Shown: positions 4 to 41,395 of the stretch, piece after piece
How positions within the stretch are numbered: the stretch's first letter is position 1
How the letters are laid out: each line of letters starts with the position of its first letter
From: a virus
Direction: 5' to 3' (one strand)
Virus genome (UHGV): UHGV-1789659
DNA length: 47,750 nt
Translations under genes and position numbers: made by a program
The notes under the pieces: model-generated
Told to the model about the DNA's origin: nothing
Databases searched by the model: none
The model's input: only the letters and a program-made list of their open reading frames with translations

Positions 4-570
4 TTAATCATTCAATAATCTATATTTTCTTTTGATTAAATCTTCACCTTTTTTGGTGAACACAAAACCAAATTGCGATTTTTTGTTTAGACGAAGGACT
101 CTGTTATCCAACGCATCGGTTGATGGAATCAATGTTTGATCATCTATCCAATTAAGTAGCGTAAGAAAGTTCAGCAGCCTCAACGTTGTTGTGCGAAGCT
201 CTTTCGATATATTTTCAATGCTGGCAATTCGTCTTTCTTTTTTCTCAGGTGGTACAGATAATTGTTCTTGAGGTTTCGTGGATAGATAATCAATTTCGTT
301 TGCTGCATCGAATGATATGTGTGGCGTAATTTTGCTAAAAAAGCCTTTCGCTGACTCACTTGATAATAAACCAGACCTATTCATATCGTTTGTTATTCTG
401 TACAGGAGTGGACTGTGTTTCATTTCAGGATAACGTTGATAAAAGTTAAGCAATTCAAAAGCAGCATTAGCACCAACAAGAAAATCAGAAGGATCGCTGA
501 CTTTCCAGAAAGAATGATTTTTCTTAGCGCCAGTGGTGTCAACAAATGATAATTCTTTTAACCAACTCAT
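4..570 (-). CDS. hypothetical protein; start moved to the ATG at 570, which follows a GGAG-type RBS (ORF track opens at 603)
   Basis: Long minus-strand ORF; RBS (plus-strand CTCCTTTC at 577-584) lies upstream of the internal Met (MSWLKEL...). No recognisable motif. Confidence 0.45.
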   Translation of the reverse strand: MSWLKELSFVDTTGAKKNHSFWKVSDPSDFLVGANAAFELLNFYQRYPEMKHSPLLYRITNDMNRSGLLSSESAKGFFSKITPHISFDAANEIDYLSTKPQEQLSVPPEKKERRIASIENISKELRTTTLRLLNFLTLLNWIDDQTLIPSTDALDNRVLRLNKKSQFGFVFTKKGEDLIKRKYRLLND

Positions 571-635
571 GATGTGCTCCTTTCTAACAAGTGAGCACAT
601 CATAGAATTAGTTGATAGGGGGTAAATATGAAATG

Positions 636-916: not shown

Positions 917-2476
917 CTAATCTCGTTTCAGAACTCCAAAATCGAATGCGCCATCAATAGGCAATACACCTTCTGCAAAGCCAGGTGTGGTGTCGATGAT
1001 GTGTTTTCGCTCATAAGAGTGAGACAACAGGTATTTGTTGCTAATGTCAATGAAATCAGTGATAAAACACACGTTTGCCTGATTCTTCTTGGCTCGTAAG
1101 CCACGACCGACACGTTGTCTCATTTCAACTTCTGCTTTCCCGCCACCAGCAAGAATGACCGCACCAACGCTTGGCACATCAACACCGACATCCAGAATAG
1201 TCGAGCCTATTAAAACATCTATTTCACCAGACGCTAAACTGTTCAGCTTTGCTTGCCTTGTCGCCTGGTTCGATTCCCCATAGATGAAGTCAACTCTAAG
1301 ACCGGACTCCTTCATCATCTCCATCAGGATTTGCCCGTGGCGTTTAAGACGAACCAGAGTCATGCAGTTGAGAGAGTGTTGCTTATAGAGCAATGCTTCG
1401 CGCACAATGGCCTCGTTACGTCCCAAATTATACACGATCCCCAACTGATAAGCCTTTTGGTAGGCAGTGCTCATACCAACTCTAAAATTGAGGTGTTTGT
1501 TAGCAAGTTCTGCCTTGATTCTGACCTCGTCCGGTTTGTAGGCAACTTTATGATAAAGGAAGTATGGCTTTGCCAGAATGCCTTTATCAATCAGGTACTT
1601 TTCCGTGACTTTTATTTCAATTCGCCCGGCCACAGCCATCAGACGCATGTTGGCTTCCGTAGAATCCTTCATGAACGGCGTTGCCGTAAGCGCCAGGCGA
1701 TAGTCTGCGTTCGCACATAATCTGGCAATGTCATAGAAATTAGAGCCTGAAGACTCATGCGCCTCTTCCAGAATAAGAAGAGAGACACTTGAAAGGAAGC
1801 GTTTCACCAACTCCCGACGTTTGAGGTGGTAGCTTTTCTTATCTGGTGTTGCATCGCGTGGTGGTTCTTCGAGGAAACTTGCAAGAGTTTGAACTGTAGC
1901 AACGTTGATATGTCGCGATACCTGGAACTCACCCGAGCCAATTACTCCAACCTTTTGGTCTTTTAACCACGGTTCGCCATTTTCGGCGCGGTAGTCGATG
2001 GATCTCTGGAAGTTTTCGGCCATCTGAAACATCAGAACAGAGCGGGTTGTTAAAAATAATGTCATTCGACCGATACGTGCAGCTGCTTTGCAGGCAACAT
2101 TAGATTTCCCGCCACCAGTAGCGATCTGCGCAATCATCATTCCCTCGCGAACTAGCGTTTCCACAGTCTGATCCTGATACGCATAATCAGGATTGTATGG
2201 GAATGGGTTAACCGCCGGATTTGGCTTTCCAAGCGCCGGGGCTTTGTCTTTGCGGATATGAACACATTTGATGCCCGCCTTGTTCAAGTTCGTCGCTACA
2301 GGCTTGGCAAAGCCAGCAGGGAACGAGTTTTTACTCCAGTTGAACATCGTGCTTGTGCCTTTCCAGTCGCCAGTCTCGACTTCGTAGCTCAACATCTGTT
2401 GCACCAGTTGCTTTACCTTGTCATCTGCGCCAGAAATAAGCGCATTTACTGCGTTAGATACAATCCGAACAGTCAT
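917..2476 (-). CDS. SF2 DEAH-box helicase
   Basis: Motif I ATGGGKS, motif II LILEEAHE (DEAH variant), motif III LTATP, motif VI RQRVGRGLR in the translation; strong RBS (AAGGAAAGAGG) upstream of the ATG at 2476. Confidence 0.8.
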   Translation of the reverse strand: MTVRIVSNAVNALISGADDKVKQLVQQMLSYEVETGDWKGTSTMFNWSKNSFPAGFAKPVATNLNKAGIKCVHIRKDKAPALGKPNPAVNPFPYNPDYAYQDQTVETLVREGMMIAQIATGGGKSNVACKAAARIGRMTLFLTTRSVLMFQMAENFQRSIDYRAENGEPWLKDQKVGVIGSGEFQVSRHINVATVQTLASFLEEPPRDATPDKKSYHLKRRELVKRFLSSVSLLILEEAHESSGSNFYDIARLCANADYRLALTATPFMKDSTEANMRLMAVAGRIEIKVTEKYLIDKGILAKPYFLYHKVAYKPDEVRIKAELANKHLNFRVGMSTAYQKAYQLGIVYNLGRNEAIVREALLYKQHSLNCMTLVRLKRHGQILMEMMKESGLRVDFIYGESNQATRQAKLNSLASGEIDVLIGSTILDVGVDVPSVGAVILAGGGKAEVEMRQRVGRGLRAKKNQANVCFITDFIDISNKYLLSHSYERKHIIDTTPGFAEGVLPIDGAFDFGVLKRD

Positions 2477-2540: not shown

Positions 2541-3239
2541 GTGGATTGTAGCAATAAAATGGATGTAAAAATCACGATTTTGCAGGTTGATGTTGCCAAC
2601 CTTCGCCCGAATACCTGGAACACCAATTCGGTTGGTGCGCAGAATTTTGAAAAACTGAAAGGTTCTATCGAAAAATTGGGCTTTTTTAAGCCAATTTTGG
2701 CTCGTGAACTTGAAGATGGATTTTTTGAAATCCTCGGCGGCGAACATCGCTGGCGTGCTGCTATTGAGCAAGGAATTTCAACGGTTCCGGTGCTTTCTGT
2801 GGGCAAAATTAGCGATGTCGTAGCTAAACAGATGTCACTAGTGGACAACGAGCGATACGGTGAAGACGACCAAATCGCATTGCAACGCTTCATTGAAGAA
2901 ATTCAGTCAGAACTTGACTATCAACTGTCTGAAATCGCCCCGTATGACGACGAAATCTCGATGGTTTTAGCAAAAGAGGCGGCAATCGACCTTGAAGCAC
3001 TGGAGGCGTTGTCTCGTGGTAGTGATGAGCCTGTCGATACCGACAAACGAGAGAAAACCGAACGTGTGGGTGCGGAACATCAGACCATGCGCTTCAAAGT
3101 AACTTTCGATGCGTCAGATCGTGTTGCAGAAACCATAAAAAACATCATCAAAGAGCAGGCTATTAACACCGGTAATGAAATGGAGAACGCTGGTGAGGCT
3201 CTGGTGTGGCTGGTCGACTACTACAAGGAGCGTATGTAA
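2541..3239 (+). CDS. ParB/sulfiredoxin-like N-terminal domain protein with acidic C-terminus
   Basis: ILGGEHRWRAAIEQGISTVPV matches the ParB N-domain GxxRxxA box; stop overlaps the next start (TAATG). Confidence 0.7.
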   Translation: MDCSNKMDVKITILQVDVANLRPNTWNTNSVGAQNFEKLKGSIEKLGFFKPILARELEDGFFEILGGEHRWRAAIEQGISTVPVLSVGKISDVVAKQMSLVDNERYGEDDQIALQRFIEEIQSELDYQLSEIAPYDDEISMVLAKEAAIDLEALEALSRGSDEPVDTDKREKTERVGAEHQTMRFKVTFDASDRVAETIKNIIKEQAINTGNEMENAGEALVWLVDYYKERM

Positions 3240-3907
3240 TGACCAAAAAGTTTGAAATCGTATATCGCGACCCGGCAGATCTTATTCCCTATGAGATGAA
3301 TGCCAAAAAGCATGATGAACAGCAGATCCGAGATCTGGCCGCAGCCATTAAAAAGCGCGGATTTGACCAGCCAATTACGGTCGATAAGAACGACGTAATT
3401 ATTACTGGCCACGGCCGCCGTGAGGCTGCAATTTTTGCTGGACTTGAGCGCGTACCGGTTATTGTTCGCGATGATCTCAGTGATGACGAGGTTCGTGCGA
3501 AGCGCCTTGAAGATAACCGACTTGCCAGCATTGATTACGATGCAATTAAGCTACAGAAAGAGCTTGAGTCGCTTGTTCTGGACGATATCGAGGTTTTCGG
3601 CTTTGAAGAGCGGGAGTTGAATGTTCTCGTTGGCAGCATGACAGAAGAAATGGACACCGACTCGCTAGTTATCGATCTGGGCGAAGAAACTAAACGACAG
3701 AAGGATGAACACACCGAGATCAGTCGTGAAGTTGCAGCGGAAGAAGTACGTGTTGTCGACGTATTGGGCTTTAAAACGCTCCCTGCTGGCTCTGCCATTG
3801 TTGTTGGTGATTTGCTTGCCCACATGGAAGAAATGACGGGAGAAAGCGGGGTAGACGCATTTGTGGCATATGCGGAGAAGATCTCTTCCGGGGAGATGGC
3901 TGCATGA
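3239..3907 (+). CDS. second ParB-like N-terminal domain protein (start set at ATG 3239 with AAGGAG RBS)
   Basis: ITGHGRREAAIFAGLERVPVIV ParB-type box; acidic C-terminal half; translationally coupled on both sides. Confidence 0.7.
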   Translation: MTKKFEIVYRDPADLIPYEMNAKKHDEQQIRDLAAAIKKRGFDQPITVDKNDVIITGHGRREAAIFAGLERVPVIVRDDLSDDEVRAKRLEDNRLASIDYDAIKLQKELESLVLDDIEVFGFEERELNVLVGSMTEEMDTDSLVIDLGEETKRQKDEHTEISREVAAEEVRVVDVLGFKTLPAGSAIVVGDLLAHMEEMTGESGVDAFVAYAEKISSGEMAA

Positions 3908-5732: not shown

Positions 5733-5756
5733 TCGGTCTGGGACGTTATTTAAAGA

Positions 5757-5811
5757 CCTGCTTCTGTATATATAAATAATAAGTAACTTATTAAATATAT
5801 ACGGAAGCAGG
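5757..5811. repeat. 55-bp near-perfect palindrome (copy 1) with AT-rich core containing AATAAGTAACTTATT
   Basis: Arms CCTGCTTCTGTATAT / ATATACGGAAGCAGG read directly; a second copy lies at 36597-36645. Confidence 0.8.
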
Positions 5812-5875
5812 CTTAGTAAGACATGCCCAGACCTAATTAGACACACCAGAAAACAAGTTGGTTAGCAGATGCAGT

Positions 5876-33642: not shown

Positions 33643-34164
33643 TTATTCTTCGAACAATTTTTCGATAGATTTTGTAGGATAGAACAAAGAACGCTCGTTG
33701 TTACCAACCAGCTGGATAAAGCCTAAACTTTTATAAAACGCCTTGGCTTTGTCATTTAACGCCTCAACGAAAAGTCCATGAATGCCTACAGCAAGAGATG
33801 CATTGTACACAACCCGCATTGCATGTGTTACAAGCATTGAGCCAAATCCTTGACCTTGAAGGGACTTGTCCAAAGCCAGCCTACCCAAAGTAACACTTGG
33901 AACATTCCGATAAGGAACCTTCTTTTGCTGGCTTCTTGAAGGTAAGGACTCCTTTTCAAAGCAGCTGCCTGACAAAGTGTAATACCCTAACACTTTTGGT
34001 CTGTCTTCTTTAGTGCAAAGCACATAAGCGCGAAGAATTTTTCCCTCATGCTGCCTTTTTAAGTGGTTGGTTAAAAAGGCATTTAGTGATTCTTCACCGC
34101 AATCAAAACCATTCAAATCATAATCTTTCTCTCCAGAGAAAATTTCTATCTTTATATTATCCAC
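33643..34164 (-). CDS. GNAT-family acetyltransferase toxin (TacT/KacT/AtaT-type)
   Basis: GNAT motif A QGQGFGSMLV; about 170 aa; immediately downstream of a DUF1778-type antitoxin ORF on the same strand; GTG start. Confidence 0.75.
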   Translation of the reverse strand: MDNIKIEIFSGEKDYDLNGFDCGEESLNAFLTNHLKRQHEGKILRAYVLCTKEDRPKVLGYYTLSGSCFEKESLPSRSQQKKVPYRNVPSVTLGRLALDKSLQGQGFGSMLVTHAMRVVYNASLAVGIHGLFVEALNDKAKAFYKSLGFIQLVGNNERSLFYPTKSIEKLFEE

Positions 34165-34171
34165 GAGTAAA

Positions 34172-34441
34172 CTACTCCATGCTTTTCAGACGATCAGCAG
34201 CTCGTTTCAGCTTGTCGTTCGGTGCCGGAGGATTGCTTATAGCGTCCATAACCAGATTCCAGGATTCTTCATTCAGAACTAGTCTACGGTGTTGCTCTAT
34301 AACTTTCACGGCACGTTCAGATGCACTGCTAACCATAAACTGAGTAATGCTCTGGTTAGACATTGCGGCAGCTTCCTCGATGATGCTTTTATCGTCATCG
34401 GTTAATCTCAAATCGATGCGCTGCTTTTTTAGTGCTGACAT
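34172..34441 (-). CDS. DUF1778-type RHH antitoxin (TacA/KacA-like)
   Basis: Start set at MSALKKQRIDLRLTDDDKSI after an AGGAGG RBS (plus-strand CCTCCT at 34446-34451); the N-terminal RIDLRL plus helical region is typical of DUF1778 antitoxins paired with GNAT toxins. Confidence 0.7.
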   Translation of the reverse strand: MSALKKQRIDLRLTDDDKSIIEEAAAMSNQSITQFMVSSASERAVKVIEQHRRLVLNEESWNLVMDAISNPPAPNDKLKRAADRLKSME

Positions 34442-34710
34442 GTATTCCTCCTGATGGCCGTGATGTAGGAAGGCCATCAATCTCCTCTGTTCAAACTGAG
34501 TTTTCGACTCAAAAATTACTTTAAAAGGCTATAGCCCATTACGTGTGCATTATCAAATTGTGTACGGCATATCACCGTACTTGTAATATAGAGGTCATTG
34601 TTACTTTTTTCAACAGACAAATACAAGCTATGATTGCCAATTGTTAATCACAACCTACCATTTAACCTTTACACCGCAGCCGTAGGCATTTAGGCTATAT
34701 CACATATAAG

Positions 34711-34724
34711 AAAACAAGTTGTTT
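34711..34724. promoter_or_regulatory. AAAACAAGTTGTTT operator-like site upstream of parA
   Basis: Near-palindrome shared with sites at 5876 and 37512. Confidence 0.35.
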
Positions 34725-34759
34725 CAGACGATAATTATATACGCAAAGGGAACTCTCCA

Positions 34760-35428
34760 ATGACCAAGATCTTTGTGGTTGGCGGCACAAAGGGCGGGCC
34801 TGGCAAATCCACCGTTGCCCAGCAAATTGCCGTTTGCCTGAAAGTCAAAAAGAAGAAGAAGGTTTATATCACTGATATAGATATTCAGCGCACGACAACA
34901 AGCTGGTGTGAAGACCGTCGGCAGAACGAAGACCTTGAGCTGATTCCTTTTGCATACGTTCAGGATGACATCATTAAGCACCTAAAATCGCTTCAGGGTA
35001 GAGCTGAGTTTGTCGTGGTAGATGCTGGTGGCTTTGACTCCGAAATTCAGCGACAAGCGATGCTGATGGCCGACGTTATCATTATCCCGCTGCGTCCTAA
35101 GCGTCGTGATTTGAAATCTCTGCGTGACATCGATCCTATTATCGACAATGTTCGTAATGTAAACAATAAAGTGAAGGTCCGCGCTGTCATGAACCAGTGC
35201 CCGGCTTTGCCATCACAAGTGTCTCGCATTCTGGCGGCTAAAGAGATTGTTGAGACGTTTGGCATCGAGTCTGCGCCAGTCAATCTATATAACCGCAACG
35301 TCTATGATGATGCGGAAGAGTCTGGTCGTTCTATCTTTGAAATGACCGGTAGCGAGCGCGACAAAAAGGCGGAAGCCGAGTTTGAAGAATTTGTAGATTA
35401 TCTGTTGAGTCTGGAGGAAGAAGAATAA
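34760..35428 (+). CDS. parA: ParA-family partition ATPase (small, type Ib-like)
   Basis: Deviant Walker A GGTKGGPGKST at the N-terminus; 222 aa; followed by a coupled small DNA-binding protein gene. Confidence 0.85.
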   Translation: MTKIFVVGGTKGGPGKSTVAQQIAVCLKVKKKKKVYITDIDIQRTTTSWCEDRRQNEDLELIPFAYVQDDIIKHLKSLQGRAEFVVVDAGGFDSEIQRQAMLMADVIIIPLRPKRRDLKSLRDIDPIIDNVRNVNNKVKVRAVMNQCPALPSQVSRILAAKEIVETFGIESAPVNLYNRNVYDDAEESGRSIFEMTGSERDKKAEAEFEEFVDYLLSLEEEE

Positions 35429-35787
35429 TGTCCATGAAAATGGGTGACCTAGCAAAGCGCAAAGAGCCTGATGCACCGGCTAAGAACACAACTCCTTTGC
35501 GCCAACCAGTCAGACCACAGGGACGCCCGACTCGTGGCAAAGAGAAAATTAAAAGCCGCACAATGTCACTGGAGGACGAATACTTCGAACTGCTGGAGAT
35601 GATGAAGTTCATCCCTCGCTTCGAGAAATTCACCCGCTCTGATGTGATTCGTGCTGCTATTTTCCATCTTGCGGAGAAGACACCGCAGGAAATCGAGGAC
35701 ATCGTGAAACTTAACGAGGCGATCACAGCTGCCGACGTTACGATGCGTACCGATGAAATTAAACGAGAGTTGATGAAGAAAGGTTGA
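35428..35787 (+). CDS. ParG-like RHH centromere-binding protein
   Basis: 119 aa; basic flexible N-terminus and C-terminal beta-alpha-alpha pattern (RTMSLEDEYFELLE...SDVIRAAIFHLAEK); TAATG coupling to parA. Confidence 0.6.
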   Translation: MSMKMGDLAKRKEPDAPAKNTTPLRQPVRPQGRPTRGKEKIKSRTMSLEDEYFELLEMMKFIPRFEKFTRSDVIRAAIFHLAEKTPQEIEDIVKLNEAITAADVTMRTDEIKRELMKKG

Positions 35788-35788
35788 C

Positions 35789-35818
35789 AAGAGAAGGCGT
35801 GATTAGACGCCTTCTCTT
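35789..35818 (+). terminator. 12-bp-stem hairpin after the partition operon
   Basis: AAGAGAAGGCGT-GATTAG-ACGCCTTCTCTT read directly. Confidence 0.5.
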
Positions 35819-35831
35819 AAAAGGTATATTT

Positions 35832-36572
35832 ATGCTTTACAAATATGTTGGAAGTAGCGTCCCGGAAGACACAATAAATTATTTAAAGTATTACTTAGAA
35901 GATGGGAAAATTCGAGATTTCAACGATCCTGCCGAGTTTAAAGTTAATTTTGATTATGATGCTGATATAGACGCCATTAAGAAAAGATTTTTTGAGCTTT
36001 GGCCTAATCATCACAATGATGAATTTGAACGCTGGTTATTGAGTCAAACAGAACATAGTCGCAGTTTTGATAACTATATGATTAGAACGACTTTTCTGCA
36101 GCGTCGGGGAGTTATTTGTTTGACAAAAAGACCAGATAATTATCTTATGTGGTCGCATTATGCGCATTCTCACTCTGGTTTTTGCATCGGATTTGATGAT
36201 GGTTTTATAAATGCGTTTGATGATGTTTTTTTTGTTCGCGGTGAGGTCAAATATTCCTCTGATGTTCCGGTTGTAAATTTTTTTACCGACTCAGCTAAAG
36301 AGATTGCAGCGGCTCTTTGCCTAAATAAAAGCGATGTCTGGGAATATGAAGAGGAGGTTAGAATCGTAACCGAGAATTGTGGCGTGAAATTATTTGATAA
36401 ATCCTTAATTAAGGAAATAACAATAGGTTGTAAGGCTAGCAGTCAACTTCAAAATTATGTTCATCAACTATTTGATTCAGGTATCGAAATCTACAAAATG
36501 AAGTGCCCTACAGGATCGTATAAGCTGGAAAAAATAAGATTAGAGAAAGATACTGATTTTCTTGGATACTAG
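35832..36572 (+). CDS. AT-rich orphan gene; hypothetical protein (possibly DUF2971-like, unverified)
   Basis: 246 aa from ATG 35832; visibly AT-rich versus neighbours; conserved-looking core LMWSHYAHSHSGFCIGFD...WEYEEEVRIV; bounded by hairpin and palindrome. Confidence 0.5.
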   Translation: MLYKYVGSSVPEDTINYLKYYLEDGKIRDFNDPAEFKVNFDYDADIDAIKKRFFELWPNHHNDEFERWLLSQTEHSRSFDNYMIRTTFLQRRGVICLTKRPDNYLMWSHYAHSHSGFCIGFDDGFINAFDDVFFVRGEVKYSSDVPVVNFFTDSAKEIAAALCLNKSDVWEYEEEVRIVTENCGVKLFDKSLIKEITIGCKASSQLQNYVHQLFDSGIEIYKMKCPTGSYKLEKIRLEKDTDFLGY

Positions 36573-36596
36573 TATTGGTAGTATCAACAATTATGA

Positions 36597-36645
36597 CCTG
36601 CTTCCGTATATAATAAGTATCTTAGTATATATATACGGAAGCAGG
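36597..36645. repeat. 49-bp palindrome (copy 2) with AT-rich AATAAGTATCTTAGTAT core
   Basis: Arms CCTGCTTCCGTATAT / TATACGGAAGCAGG; same family as 5757-5811. Confidence 0.8.
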
Positions 36646-36728
36646 TCTTTTAAAGACACCCACCAGAACAACTCCCTTCTGTTTCCACTTCCAAAAACTG
36701 CCACCAGTCGCTATCATCCGCTCATTGT

Positions 36729-36750
36729 GATAAGTAAGTATCTACCTACC
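36729..36750 (+). promoter_or_regulatory. GATAAGTAAGTATCTACCTACC conserved motif
   Basis: GATAAGTA-family motif directly upstream of the replication-module first gene. Confidence 0.4.
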
Positions 36751-36761
36751 AGGTGAGCCAC

Positions 36762-37502
36762 ATGAGCCAAATCTTTTTCGATACCATCGACAACGACCAG
36801 TACGACTTCATGACAGAGTGGAATACCGCTGCTATGGACAAGTGGGTCGCTGAAAACATTGGTTTGTCGCGCTGTAAAGACGAGGCTGAACTCTTCGAGA
36901 CGAAGTGGTTTGATTACCGCGACATGCATCCTCTTATGGCCACCTGTCTATTTACGGAGGCATACAAACGTCAGTACTCAAATATCATGCTGACGCACGG
37001 TCGTGAACACTTTGAAACAGCTCCGTTCACCACCGGGTTAAAACGCCTGCCTTATCAGGAGTTGTCGACTGCCAATAAAACGTCGCTATGGAAAGCACGC
37101 CAGTTTGCTGATCGCTATTGCTGTTCATACGACTACTTTATCTCCACGGTTCTTTCCGCAGCTGCACGGCGTCTGTGGGACAAGTTGCCGCGCCCACAGC
37201 ATTTATGGCAGCCAGAGCTGATTGAGATATTTGAAGAGAAATTAGCCAGACGCGCAACAACCCGTCTGGATGACTCTCTGGTTAGCTTTAAGCATATGGG
37301 AGACATGCAGTTCAACCCGATTCAGGAAAGCTATTTTGAGTGGATTCTGGAGCGTTTACGCACCATCCCCCGCAGCAAGCGCATACGCGCAATTTTCTCC
37401 GCTATCTGGCTAATGGAAATTGTTCCAGAGCGCCTTATTTCCGCCCACTTTCCAGAAGAACTGGAAGAAGCACGGCGGTTTATTGATCCCCTATCTAATT
37501 AA
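36762..37502 (+). CDS. hypothetical replication-module protein (possible initiator or helicase loader, by position only)
   Basis: 246 aa from ATG 36762 (ORF track opens at GTG 36753); immediately upstream of the DnaB-like helicase. Confidence 0.45.
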   Translation: MSQIFFDTIDNDQYDFMTEWNTAAMDKWVAENIGLSRCKDEAELFETKWFDYRDMHPLMATCLFTEAYKRQYSNIMLTHGREHFETAPFTTGLKRLPYQELSTANKTSLWKARQFADRYCCSYDYFISTVLSAAARRLWDKLPRPQHLWQPELIEIFEEKLARRATTRLDDSLVSFKHMGDMQFNPIQESYFEWILERLRTIPRSKRIRAIFSAIWLMEIVPERLISAHFPEELEEARRFIDPLSN

Positions 37503-37511
37503 CTAATACTA

Positions 37512-37526
37512 GAAAACAATTTGTTT
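37512..37526. promoter_or_regulatory. GAAAACAATTTGTTT operator-like near-palindrome upstream of the helicase gene
   Basis: AACAA-T-TTGTT inverted repeat; same family as the sites at 5876 and 34711. Confidence 0.35.
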
Positions 37527-37545
37527 AAAAAACAAAGGAAAGCAC

Positions 37546-38886
37546 ATGACCGAACTTTGCCATACAGGACGCGGGCTGTCCGAAGAGTTTGATGAAGATT
37601 TCCAGAACAGACTGACGGCATATTTTTGTCGTGATCACGAGTTTCTTACTCGTGCGGGAGATCTGGTTGTGCCTAGCCAATTTGCCAATGCGGCCAATGC
37701 CATATTGGTTAATATGGTTTCGGGCTATTACCGTATGTACAAGAGCGCGCCCTCTTCATCTGCAATTCTGGATATGCTTAAGCGTGCGAAACGCGATAAG
37801 ACTATCCGTGAGGAACTATTCGCCGATGTTGTTGCTGCGTTTAAGCGCATCCTTGCAGAAAAATTGTCCGATACCTCGTACATGGTTGACCAGGTATCAA
37901 CCTTCGCAAAAAGCGTAGCGTTTGATGATGCTCTGATTAAGGCTGCTGAACTGAAAGAGAAGGGCGACTTTCAGGGGGCGATGGCAATCATGGCCAAGGT
38001 TCAGCAGATTGGATCGAACGAAGCGACCGGAATCTATGACTACTACACCTCCGCAAGTGAGCGATTGAAAGCGCGTGAATATGAGGCTTCAGAGGAGTAT
38101 GTACCAAACAGTATTACAACTGGACTCCCTCTTCTCGATAGGTTGCTGTACCAAAAAGGCTGGGCAAAGCGCGAAATGGTGCTCTTCATGGGGTTCGCTA
38201 AATCCGGGAAATCGACCGCAATGGGTGAGTTTTCCATAAACGCAACGCTTGCTGGCTACAATGTTCTGTATCTCTCGCTGGAGGTTCACACCAACATTTT
38301 GTCCGACCGCTTTGATGCAAGATTGTCGGAGACGGAAATGTCCAAGCTGGTGGAACGGCGCGATGAAGTTCATCGTAAGTTGGCAGAGTTGGGAGCCACT
38401 AAGGGGATTGGTAGTTTGTGGGTGGTTGAGCGCCCGTCAGGAAGTATGTCACCGGCAGATCTGGACCGTATGCTTAACAGCATGAAAGCCAATGGCATGG
38501 TGCCTGACATGGTTGTTGTCGACTACGCAGATTTGATGCGTGCCAGTTATGACCTTCGTGATGATCGCGCCAATATTCGTAGTATCTACACCGATTTACG
38601 TGCTCTTTATGACAAACATAACGTTGCTGGGATCACGGCATCGCAGACAAACCGTGAAGGTGGCGCGTCAGAAGTTGCCACAATGATGCACGCTGCCGAC
38701 AACATCGAAAAAGTACGTATTGCTGACCTGGTAATAACGATCAACAAAACCGAAGAAGAAGAAGCGAAAGGAGAGGCTCGTCTCTACTTTGCTGGTTCGC
38801 GTAACCAGCAGGGAGGGATCAGCATTCGCGTTAAACAAAACCTCGAACAAATGCGCTTCATTGAGCGAATCTTAGACGTTACCTAA
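37546..38886 (+). CDS. DnaB-like replicative helicase
   Basis: C-terminal RecA-like domain with Walker A GFAKSGKST, Walker B VVVDYADLM and ITASQTNREG; N-terminal helical domain; about 445 aa. Confidence 0.8.
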   Translation: MTELCHTGRGLSEEFDEDFQNRLTAYFCRDHEFLTRAGDLVVPSQFANAANAILVNMVSGYYRMYKSAPSSSAILDMLKRAKRDKTIREELFADVVAAFKRILAEKLSDTSYMVDQVSTFAKSVAFDDALIKAAELKEKGDFQGAMAIMAKVQQIGSNEATGIYDYYTSASERLKAREYEASEEYVPNSITTGLPLLDRLLYQKGWAKREMVLFMGFAKSGKSTAMGEFSINATLAGYNVLYLSLEVHTNILSDRFDARLSETEMSKLVERRDEVHRKLAELGATKGIGSLWVVERPSGSMSPADLDRMLNSMKANGMVPDMVVVDYADLMRASYDLRDDRANIRSIYTDLRALYDKHNVAGITASQTNREGGASEVATMMHAADNIEKVRIADLVITINKTEEEEAKGEARLYFAGSRNQQGGISIRVKQNLEQMRFIERILDVT

Positions 38887-38968: not shown

Positions 38969-40150
38969 ATGAGCCTTTATGTTATATCAACATTTAGGTT
39001 GGTCACAATATTGCCTGTTAAAAGTGGAATTATCGTGAGCGAGCTGAAAGAGCTAATTGCCGAATTAGATTTTGAACAATGGTTGGATACTGAAGGTATC
39101 GTTTATCGACGTGGAGGCGTGAGTGCTCGCGGTCGTGAAGTGAATATCAAGGAGTGTCCGGTATGCGGCAGCTCCAACTGGAAGGTATATTTCAATCTGA
39201 CCAGCGGCGTCGGTAAATGCTTCGCTGGTGATCATCCCGAAGAGATTCAGTTCAATAAGCTGGTCTTCCTCAAGCACCACAGCGGTAAATCACGACGACA
39301 GTTCGAGGAATATGTGCAGAACGCTCTTCTTTCCCAGGGGTGGGCACCAAAGAAAGAAGAGATAGTGCTTGCAAGCACAGTCGAGTTAGAGGGACCACTT
39401 GCACTCCCTCGTCATTACGAACTTCCTATAGATGGCCGTCTTCCAGACTATCTGGTTGAACGAAACATATCGCCTGAAATGGCAAAGTATTTTGACCTAC
39501 GATACTGCGTCGAAGGCAAGCACGCTTATGTTGATCCGTATACAGATCAGGTTAAAGGACAGATATTCGATATGCGAATACTGATACCGGTTTACGATCT
39601 GGATGGGGTAATGAAGACATTTCAGGGACGAGACATTACCGGTACAGCAGAACGCCGCTACCTCTTTCCTATGCAGCTTCCAGCTTCAGGTAAGTTTCTC
39701 TACAACGGCCATAATGCGGTCGGCAAACAGACTGTAGTTGTCTGTGAGGGGGCGTTCGATGTTATGGGGGTTAAACGAGCTATTTTTGATGAAGAAACAT
39801 TACGTGATTACGTGGAACCGATAGGAACGTTCGGGATGCATCTATCTGGTAACACCACTCAGGATGCAGAAGATCAGTTAGGCGCGTTCCTGACGCTCAA
39901 GGCGCGTGGATTACGTAATGTGATCATGATGTGGGATAGTGAAAAGCAAGCTATACGCAACACGATGGCCGCAGCCAGGCGACTGACCAGTATTGGTCTT
40001 AATGTCAAAGTTGCGTGTTTGGGCGAGGAAGGACTCGACCCCGGCGATGCGACACCGGGGCAGATTATCAAAGCCTACTATTGCGCAAAACCTTACTCAC
40101 GACAGCTTGAACTTTTAAGCAAGGTAAAAGGTATAGCAGCATTAGTTTGA
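38969..40150 (+). CDS. DNA primase (zinc-ribbon plus TOPRIM)
   Basis: CPVCGSSNW...CFAGDH zinc-ribbon-like N-terminus; TOPRIM VVVCEGAFDVMG. Start uncertain: ATG 38969, or GTG 39036; ORF track opens at 38915. Confidence 0.7.
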   Translation: MSLYVISTFRLVTILPVKSGIIVSELKELIAELDFEQWLDTEGIVYRRGGVSARGREVNIKECPVCGSSNWKVYFNLTSGVGKCFAGDHPEEIQFNKLVFLKHHSGKSRRQFEEYVQNALLSQGWAPKKEEIVLASTVELEGPLALPRHYELPIDGRLPDYLVERNISPEMAKYFDLRYCVEGKHAYVDPYTDQVKGQIFDMRILIPVYDLDGVMKTFQGRDITGTAERRYLFPMQLPASGKFLYNGHNAVGKQTVVVCEGAFDVMGVKRAIFDEETLRDYVEPIGTFGMHLSGNTTQDAEDQLGAFLTLKARGLRNVIMMWDSEKQAIRNTMAAARRLTSIGLNVKVACLGEEGLDPGDATPGQIIKAYYCAKPYSRQLELLSKVKGIAALV

Positions 40151-41395
40151 ACCAGTATTAGTCACGTAAACATTGACCGAAAATGATTTAACTTCTGTGT
40201 TGAAGTTGTCAGTCATTACCGCGAGGTAGGCATTCTTGGTATCTCTGAATTGCTTCAGGATGATTTGAACGTTATCGGTGCAAACAAACGAGGTAGCCAG
40301 ATTGCCTCCTTTCTCTGAAAAATCCTTCAAGAAGGTGCAGTCAACTTTGCCATCATTAGCGGTAAAGACGGCATCATCACCCTGCCAGGTAAATGTTGCG
40401 TTAACGCCTTTATCAATGGATTTAGCAATAAGTCGCTGAGTGTCAGATTTGGCATTTTGCTGTTTTGAAGGCGAACGGAACGTACCTTTTGCTTTCATTG
40501 CAGCAACGTTTTCGCAGCCCGTTTCGTCATCTTTATCGCAAGCAGCTTGGTAAAGCTCTGATGCTTTCCGATAATCCTGTTTGACGCCCAATCCCTTAAG
40601 ATACATGTAACCAAGGTGGTTCATGGCATAATCATTTCCTAAGCTGATTGCTTGTTCTAAAAGACTTCTGGCCTTCGAATAGTCTTTTTTTATACCTTCT
40701 CCATGCATCAACTTGTATCCAAGCGCGCTCATGGCGTTATTATTTCCTAATTCAGCTGCTTTCAAGTACCACTTAATTGCCTCTTTATTGTTGCGCTTAA
40801 CAGCAACACCATCGTCGTACATAGAGCCTAGCCCATACATTCCTGCGGCATTTCCACTATCCGCAGCCTTTTTATAAGATTTAAATGCTTTCTTGTAATC
40901 TTTCGGAACTCCCTTACCGTATTGATATAAATATCCCATATAGGCAAGCGAAGGTATATCACCAGCTTCTACTGCTAGTTTGTGATATTTTAAAGCAGCT
41001 TCTGGGTCCTCCTTTCCAGTCCAACCTCGTTCGTATATAACGGCAAGATTATGGTAAGCACTGCCGTTGCGAGCATTTCCTGCTAGTTTGTAGTACTCAA
41101 CGGCCTTATTTAGATCTTTATCTACTCCCTTCCCAATTGTGTACATAACCCCAAGCGCATAATATGCTACTTTATCTCCCTTTTCTGCGGCGAGATCGAT
41201 CCACTTCTTGGCCTCTACTAAATCCTCATCAAAGCCATTAGCCCCATCCAAATAATTTGTCCCTAACGCACTTTGTGCTGTGGTATCTCCTGCGGTGGCG
41301 GCGTCGATCAGCGTTTGTTTATTATCTGCGTTAACGTATCCAGGGCCGAAAAGCAAAGCTAATGCCAGCAACGATGAAGGTTTTATGAGTTTCAT
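40142..41395 (-). CDS. secreted Sel1-like repeat (SLR/TPR-like) protein
   Basis: Signal peptide MKLIKPSSLLALALLFGPGYVNA; about eight 36-aa Sel1-type repeats; C-terminal 110-aa non-repeat domain; 3-prime end overlaps the primase stop convergently. Confidence 0.75.
   Translation of the reverse strand: MKLIKPSSLLALALLFGPGYVNADNKQTLIDAATAGDTTAQSALGTNYLDGANGFDEDLVEAKKWIDLAAEKGDKVAYYALGVMYTIGKGVDKDLNKAVEYYKLAGNARNGSAYHNLAVIYERGWTGKEDPEAALKYHKLAVEAGDIPSLAYMGYLYQYGKGVPKDYKKAFKSYKKAADSGNAAGMYGLGSMYDDGVAVKRNNKEAIKWYLKAAELGNNNAMSALGYKLMHGEGIKKDYSKARSLLEQAISLGNDYAMNHLGYMYLKGLGVKQDYRKASELYQAACDKDDETGCENVAAMKAKGTFRSPSKQQNAKSDTQRLIAKSIDKGVNATFTWQGDDAVFTANDGKVDCTFLKDFSEKGGNLATSFVCTDNVQIILKQFRDTKNAYLAVMTDNFNTEVKSFSVNVYVTNTGSN

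Follow-up and report, generated by a model that had tools for sequence, protein, structure and literature searches.

An exchangeable DUF2971 gene in the cargo slot of an SSU5-type phage-plasmid, with a predicted ADP-ribosyltransferase fold and a probable role in defence

The 246-amino acid gene at positions 35832–36572 (plus strand) of the window, that is the whole 47,750-nucleotide stretch of viral DNA analysed here, is best read as exchangeable accessory cargo. It encodes a stand-alone DUF2971 (PDC-S31) protein with a predicted DarT-like ADP-ribosyltransferase fold that would act in abortive-infection defence, in an allele that is probably impaired. We put the probability of this reading at roughly 0.6.

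A cargo slot between partition genes and a conserved palindrome

Escherichia phage Cyrano, apparently one and the same as the E. coli LF82 plasmid NC_011917 (equal identity to our query), matches region 34700–37600 over its full length at 97.4% identity, and 25 more E. coli and E. fergusonii plasmids of ~105–115 kb are 97–98% identical to this region. The par genes of Salmonella phage SSU5 are 85% identical to those of the window. Together, these similarities assign the window to the SSU5-type (SSU5-like) phage-plasmids. Its genes run from lysis genes through a TacT/TacA-type toxin-antitoxin pair, parA, a 119-amino acid parB-like gene and the DUF2971 gene to a conserved 246/249-amino acid gene, a DnaB-like helicase and a primase, so that a ParA-type ATPase and its 119-amino acid partner lie upstream and the replication genes downstream, as described in the initial annotation. 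The parA gene (34760–35428, plus strand; 222 amino acids; NCBIfam ParA_partition, E 4.1e-33), annotated as ParA in Cyrano and PhiR41_1, belongs to the conserved backbone, left of the cargo, and differs from its Cyrano counterpart by six synonymous and two nonsynonymous changes. For the parB-like gene (35428–35787, plus strand), a Pfam search found no family; its stop codon forms the left edge of the variable slot.

When we compared plasmids with ~97% identical backbones, we found different cargo between the same boundaries. Similarity to sister plasmids ends at the parB-like stop codon (35785–35787) and resumes ~20 bp ahead of a palindrome, and blastn boundaries against three of them (L002, L003 and L004) delimit an exchangeable cassette, hairpin plus DUF2971 gene, at 35788–36575. 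At an empty site (L009; pOkiPb01698_2), ~24 bp resembling window positions 36576–36594 connect the parB stop to the palindrome. We take the interval from the parB-like stop codon to the palindrome to be a cargo-exchange site, where related phage-plasmids, compared for presence and absence, hold a DUF2971 gene, unrelated genes or nothing. The backbone region is matched by 263 of 5,426 complete E. coli genomes, 21 of which carry this DUF2971 allele.

The alternative occupants include several matches to defence genes. One sister plasmid carries a minus-strand LEM-3-type GIY-YIG protein matching PD-T4-3 (E 1.6e-23), another a 567-amino acid KAP NTPase matching PDC-S49 (E 2.8e-22), and a third a different DUF2971 gene together with PD-T7-5 (E 1.8e-139). 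PD-T4-3 and PD-T7-5 are listed in E. coli and Shigella SSU5-type elements, which reportedly also carry anti-defence genes (bioRxiv 2025.09.12.675607). Three further cargo types, encoding 352 amino acids (L006, 1149–2207, minus strand), 250 and 140 amino acids (L007, 1140–2307, plus strand) and 225 amino acids (L008, 1127–1804, minus strand), are mostly AT-rich and gave no Pfam match and no significant PADLOC match; their position makes them candidate defence genes. Across cargo types, we found neither a co-varying neighbour gene nor a linked antitoxin-like gene.

DUF2971 alleles also occur near parB in more distant relatives. In SSU5, a ~50% identical allele follows two small genes; in Klebsiella phage pJN2-26, an allele lies ~1.1 kb beyond parB; and in phage vB_Kpn_1825-KPC53, a 27%-identical homologue sits on the opposite strand directly beside parB. 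Other alleles are at most 56% identical while the backbone is 80–88% identical, and among 603 plasmid matches none falls between 60% and 95% identity. This gap indicates that alleles are replaced rather than gradually diverging.

The slot resembles the old/tin locus and tail-gene hotspot of P2 and the hotspot of P4 (PMC9122126, PMC13586616), where defence cargo, mostly AT-rich and with one type excluding another, occupies a fixed position between conserved core genes. It differs in belonging to an SSU5-type phage-plasmid, where the partition operon and a conserved palindrome flank it, and a literature search found no description of it. Distant DUF2971 homologues occupy comparable surroundings: one belongs to the tail-gene cluster of P2-like prophages, which has been described as a hotspot for accessory and defence genes (PMC13586616), one to a Shewanella prophage, where it adjoins a CI-like repressor, and one to a Serratia island that also contains type I R-M, PIN and CbtA/CbeA genes.

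In base composition the gene is foreign to its surroundings. It starts with an ATG at 35832, preceded by AAAGG, and has 35.2% GC (GC3 30.0%) in a window of 46.7% GC. The four flanking genes lie at 47–49% (parA 47.2%, parB-like 49.2%, downstream gene 48.9%, dnaB 48.8%), confirming the initial impression that it is AT-richer than its neighbours. It is the lowest-GC 741-bp stretch of the window (0.28% of sliding windows are equally low) and has the lowest GC among the 36 open reading frames of at least 150 amino acids (z = -3.5 for GC, -3.0 for GC3); most slot cargo is likewise AT-rich, at 30–44% GC. The gene thus combines two marks of a moron, foreign composition and presence/absence polymorphism among related genomes.

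The insulation proposed for this moron held on one side. Upstream, the predicted 12-bp-stem hairpin is present at 35789–35818 (plus strand) with perfectly complementary 12-nucleotide arms (35789–35800 and 35807–35818) around a 6-nucleotide loop; its RNA folds at -20.6 kcal/mol (z = -5.2), and none of 200 shuffled sequences folds as well. We assign this hairpin to the cassette because Cyrano carries it without any difference, while the other cargo types each bring a distinct stem-loop immediately past the parB stop. The hairpin has no U-tract, terminator prediction left it uncalled, and we found no sigma-70-like promoter on the plus strand between hairpin and ATG. Because the hairpin lacks a U-tract and no promoter was found before the ATG, the gene is probably read through from parAB rather than being an autonomous transcription unit.

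Downstream, by contrast, the palindrome lies outside the insert. The 49 bp originally noted (36597–36645) lie within a 53-bp element at 36595–36647 (plus strand), whose 18-nucleotide, fully complementary arms (36595–36612 and 36630–36647) are separated by 17 nucleotides and which is followed by TCTTTT. The foreign cargo with its own hairpin was seen correctly, but the palindrome, which accompanies each of the cargo types and recurs at the empty site as well as in SSU5, is a conserved backbone element. It folds at -29.6 kcal/mol (z = -8.1 against shuffled sequence). Among 12 distinct copies, the stem varies between C-G, U-G and U-A, with one C-A break, and thus pairing of the plus-strand RNA is kept; the right arm and TCTTTT are almost invariant. 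The palindrome is probably an intrinsic terminator, ending the parAB-cargo unit in front of the replication genes.

Another copy, loop sequence included, occupies 5755–5813, ~115 bp upstream of terS, which encodes the small terminase; 0.02 occurrences would be expected in the window by chance where two are found. All 12 SSU5-type phages in our collection have at least two palindrome loci, at 83–98% identity, and parA is only ~79% identical between E. coli and Klebsiella, below the conservation of the palindrome. This high conservation suggests an additional role as a putative protein-binding site, centromere- or operator-like. Beyond the palindrome, the gene at 36753–37502 (plus strand; RefSeq start 36762) has no match in Pfam, PADLOC or NCBIfam. 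It accompanies all cargo types as well as the empty site, and is backbone, not a partner of the cargo.

Other parts of the window also vary or may carry accessory genes. Between the lysis genes and parA (33643–34480, minus strand) lie a GNAT-type toxin of 173 amino acids and a TacA-family antitoxin of 102 amino acids (Pfam TacA1, E 8.6e-26). SSU5, PhiR41_1 and pS2-S1K81-2 have two unrelated hypothetical genes there, and this position is therefore a second variable slot. At 4–603 (minus strand), a strongly AT-rich 199-amino acid open reading frame (35.8% GC, GC3 32%), which is also in Cyrano (CYRAN_116) and adjoins a 92-amino acid open reading frame and a helicase, has no match in Pfam or PADLOC and may be another acquired accessory gene. 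The 519-amino acid ResIII/DEAD helicase at 917–2476 (minus strand), UvsW in the Cyrano annotation, has partial PADLOC matches to PbeA (E 2.6e-23) that extend over no more than the helicase portion of the profiles and probably reflect similarity shared by helicases in general. Upstream of the terminase region, positions 2541–3907 encode two proteins with ParB-like N-terminal domains, which the Cyrano annotation names ParB and ParB-like nuclease; they are distinct from the parA/parB-like pair at 34760–35787. Directly after the primase gene, where the GC skew is inverted, positions 40142–41395 (minus strand; 42.7% GC) encode a 417-amino acid Sel1-repeat protein (Pfam Sel1, E 5.4e-56).

A DUF2971 protein with a predicted ADP-ribosyltransferase fold

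The initial annotation had suggested a resemblance to DUF2971 proteins from the motifs LMWSHYAHSHSGFCIGFD and WEYEEEVRIV, both of which the protein contains. The Pfam search bore this out: PF11185 matches with 41.5 bits against a gathering cut-off of 22 (E 3.5e-10) over profile positions 1–89 of 89, and all 58 aligned homologues (58/58) also match DUF2971. In a defence-system database, PADLOC, residues 2–234 match positions 9–255 of 259 of the single-gene profile PDC-S31 (PDLC04990; E 3.1e-38). The protein further matches PHROG 1762, whose function is unassigned (E 5.9e-61), and RefSeq labels near-identical plasmid genes ‘DUF2971 domain-containing protein’. It shares with PDC-S31 and PF11185 the full-length match and the form of a single stand-alone protein of ~250 amino acids; PDC-S31 is a computational candidate, and a literature search for ‘PDC-S31’ returned nothing.

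The gene is no orphan, as it had been called. A profile built from the 58 homologues finds 36,754 protein clusters (50% identity, E ≤ 1e-3), and among the best 150 of these matches nearly all are stand-alone proteins of ~240–290 amino acids. Nor is the family without an assigned function: DUF2971 proteins are predicted ADP-ribosyltransferases, placed beside DarT and AbiGi in the ART superfamily with a conserved tyrosine and an ExE motif, ~18% of them are predicted secreted effectors (PMC12522546), and one family member has been tested.

In its predicted structure, the DUF2971 protein displays the ADP-ribosyltransferase core fold. Sequence and profile searches of the PDB gave no match, DarT included, a Foldseek search gave no significant match, PADLOC at E ≤ 1 gave only PDC-S31 models, and Pfam at E ≤ 1 gave no DarT family in any of the 58 members. 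The model presents a predicted ADP-ribosyltransferase whose fold is closest to DarT, at 8–14% identity in structural alignments. Unlike DarT, it has large helical inserts and an extra C-terminal subdomain; a helical insert (residues 46–91) and the C-terminal subdomain (~185–246) lie outside the ~128 residues that align. DarT is adjoined by the macrodomain antitoxin DarG in DarTG, whereas no such gene lies beside the DUF2971 gene, which forms a one-gene cassette followed by the backbone gene without a Pfam match. The helical insert and the C-terminal subdomain are candidates for holding the enzyme in check without a DarG-like partner.

Residues that are invariant or nearly so in our alignments are Y5, N31-D32-P33, W107-S108-H109-Y110, H114, K166, W170, Y172, E173, E175 and R177. 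Of the two glutamates, E173 never varies, and E175 is unchanged in 145 of 145 sequences and conserved to at least 90% in alignment A3. E173-x-E175 sits at the start of the strand formed by residues 175–180, and, following the motif assignment of PMC12522546 rather than a superposition, we equate the pair with the catalytic motif III (ExE) of ADP-ribosyltransferases.

A private deletion in the window allele

Upon comparing the window allele with Cyrano, the 90%-cluster representative P0001 and six other plasmid alleles, we noticed an in-frame 15-bp deletion (junction 35915–35916, plus strand), a new point that the initial annotation had missed. It removes A29-T-R-P-N33 of the 251-amino acid reference, just before the invariant FNDP, and distinguishes the window copy from the PDC-S31 proteins that it otherwise resembles. 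The deletion is absent from seven other sequenced alleles and is not shared by any of the 26 plasmid and 21 E. coli genome matches, whose spans are 15–21 bp longer than the query. The segment between β-strand 2 and FNDP counts nine residues in all 201 other homologues examined (57 of 57, and 144 of 144 further sequences, that is 143 representatives and the reference allele), and four in the window protein; in the models, β-strand 2 covers residues 26–30 in the reference and 26–28 in the window protein. This departure from the family-typical spacing bears on activity, not on homology.

Substitutions accompany the deletion. The window branch has three private amino acid changes (K16N, C96R and P232T), beside a single private change that is synonymous. 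Compared with Cyrano, the gene has five nonsynonymous changes to one synonymous, and four backbone genes together have 6:56 (Fisher p = 2.4e-4, on small counts). The private five-residue deletion in a segment of invariant length and the excess of amino acid changes make it probable that the window allele is weakened or inactive; at the least it may be attenuated. Deletion and substitutions, small as the counts are, fit relaxed constraint or decay, and also diversifying selection.

The strongest alternative, to which we give nearly even odds, is that the window copy is a decaying, non-functional remnant, in which the reading frame is intact and the enzyme inactive. The deletion, the trimmed β-strand next to FNDP and the ratio of private changes all point that way. 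Loss of the gene also appears to be tolerated, since IS1A cuts the same allele to 151 amino acids in one sister E. coli plasmid (L005, NZ_JBQRBK010000004.1, 1633–2814), and the slot is empty in some plasmids. Against a remnant, the frame is open and the window protein keeps every family-invariant signature residue (FNDP, WSHY, His114, Lys166, Trp170, Glu173-x-Glu175 and Arg177), the AF2 model has pLDDT values of 88–94 around the deletion, and an in-frame deletion would be expected of a tolerated or specificity-changing variant too.

A probable defence function and its alternatives

Of the functions that the initial annotation had entertained for such genes, defence has the best support, and we infer it from four lines of evidence: the match to PDC-S31, the validated defence genes PD-T4-3 and PD-T7-5 in the same slot, the homologues in accessory positions of prophages, and the published activity of a DUF2971 protein. 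This protein is Aristaios, which gives Lactococcus protection that sets in after DNA injection and has the phenotype of abortive infection (PMC11381338). By description, it resembles the window protein in being a DUF2971 protein with an ART-like predicted fold, encoded by a single gene on a mobile element (the lactococcal plasmid pUCCL641_199; PMC11381338). It differs in its length (316 versus 246 amino acids), its Gram-positive host, and its reported best structural match, which is 5ZJ5 and not DarT.

A mechanism along these lines can be proposed. In the lysogen, the DUF2971 gene would be transcribed with or just after parAB, ending at the conserved palindrome, and its product would stay inactive until a competing phage infects. 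Infection would then lead to NAD+-dependent ADP-ribosylation of a nucleic-acid or protein target, which would block phage replication at a cost to the cell and so amount to abortive infection, as with Aristaios. A more specific version, doubtful in all its parts taken together, holds that the DUF2971 proteins of SSU5-type elements are antitoxin-less, self-restrained DarT-like enzymes that ADP-ribosylate the nucleic acid of competing phages. Their genes would be single-gene cassettes recombining at the 3′ end of parB and at the dispersed palindrome, itself a terminator and putative centromere- or operator-like site, and the window deletion would mark an attenuated or retargeted allele.

Phages also use ADP-ribosyltransferases offensively: T4 Alt, ModA and ModB modify host or defence proteins. 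That the DUF2971 protein is such a host-takeover or counter-defence enzyme, rather than one that defends the lysogen, seems unlikely to us. It is phage-encoded with a predicted ART fold, a share of its family is predicted to be secreted as effectors (~18%; PMC12522546), and anti-defence genes are reported in SSU5-type elements (bioRxiv 2025.09.12.675607). Yet the alternatives in its slot are defence and not anti-defence genes (PD-T4-3, PD-T7-5, PDC-S49), it adjoins plasmid-maintenance genes and is not part of an early lytic operon, the homologue next to a CI-like repressor points to expression in the lysogen, and the sole tested family member defends.

The toxin-like ART fold and the location beside the partition genes, with the TacT/TacA-type pair just upstream (33643–34480), would also suit an addiction toxin that kills cells losing the phage-plasmid. 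We consider this distinctly improbable: no antitoxin candidate is present, the sole neighbour being the backbone gene that stays with every cargo and with the empty slot, and the gene is missing from most sister plasmids. A housekeeping accessory of partition or replication, supported only by the gene's location, with the par operon on one side and the replication module on the other, is hardly credible given the foreign composition, an allele found in 21 of 263 backbone-bearing E. coli genomes while the others hold unrelated genes or nothing, and alleles no more than 56% identical (~50% in SSU5) on backbones of 80–88%.

As the gene is already annotated in public plasmids, the gain is incremental; the useful by-products are the defence cargo slot of SSU5-type phage-plasmids, the natural deletion allele and the conserved dispersed palindrome. 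SSU5-type phage-plasmids are common, at the frequency seen among complete E. coli genomes (263 of 5,426), and the slot’s cargo is therefore spread widely among enteric bacteria. As a point of exchange for defence genes, the slot would make new candidates for anti-phage genes easy to collect, because three of its cargo types belong to no known family. For the DUF2971 family, 36,754 clusters with only one tested member, the 251-amino acid allele and its 246-amino acid deletion form would provide a natural pair with which to probe the mechanism.
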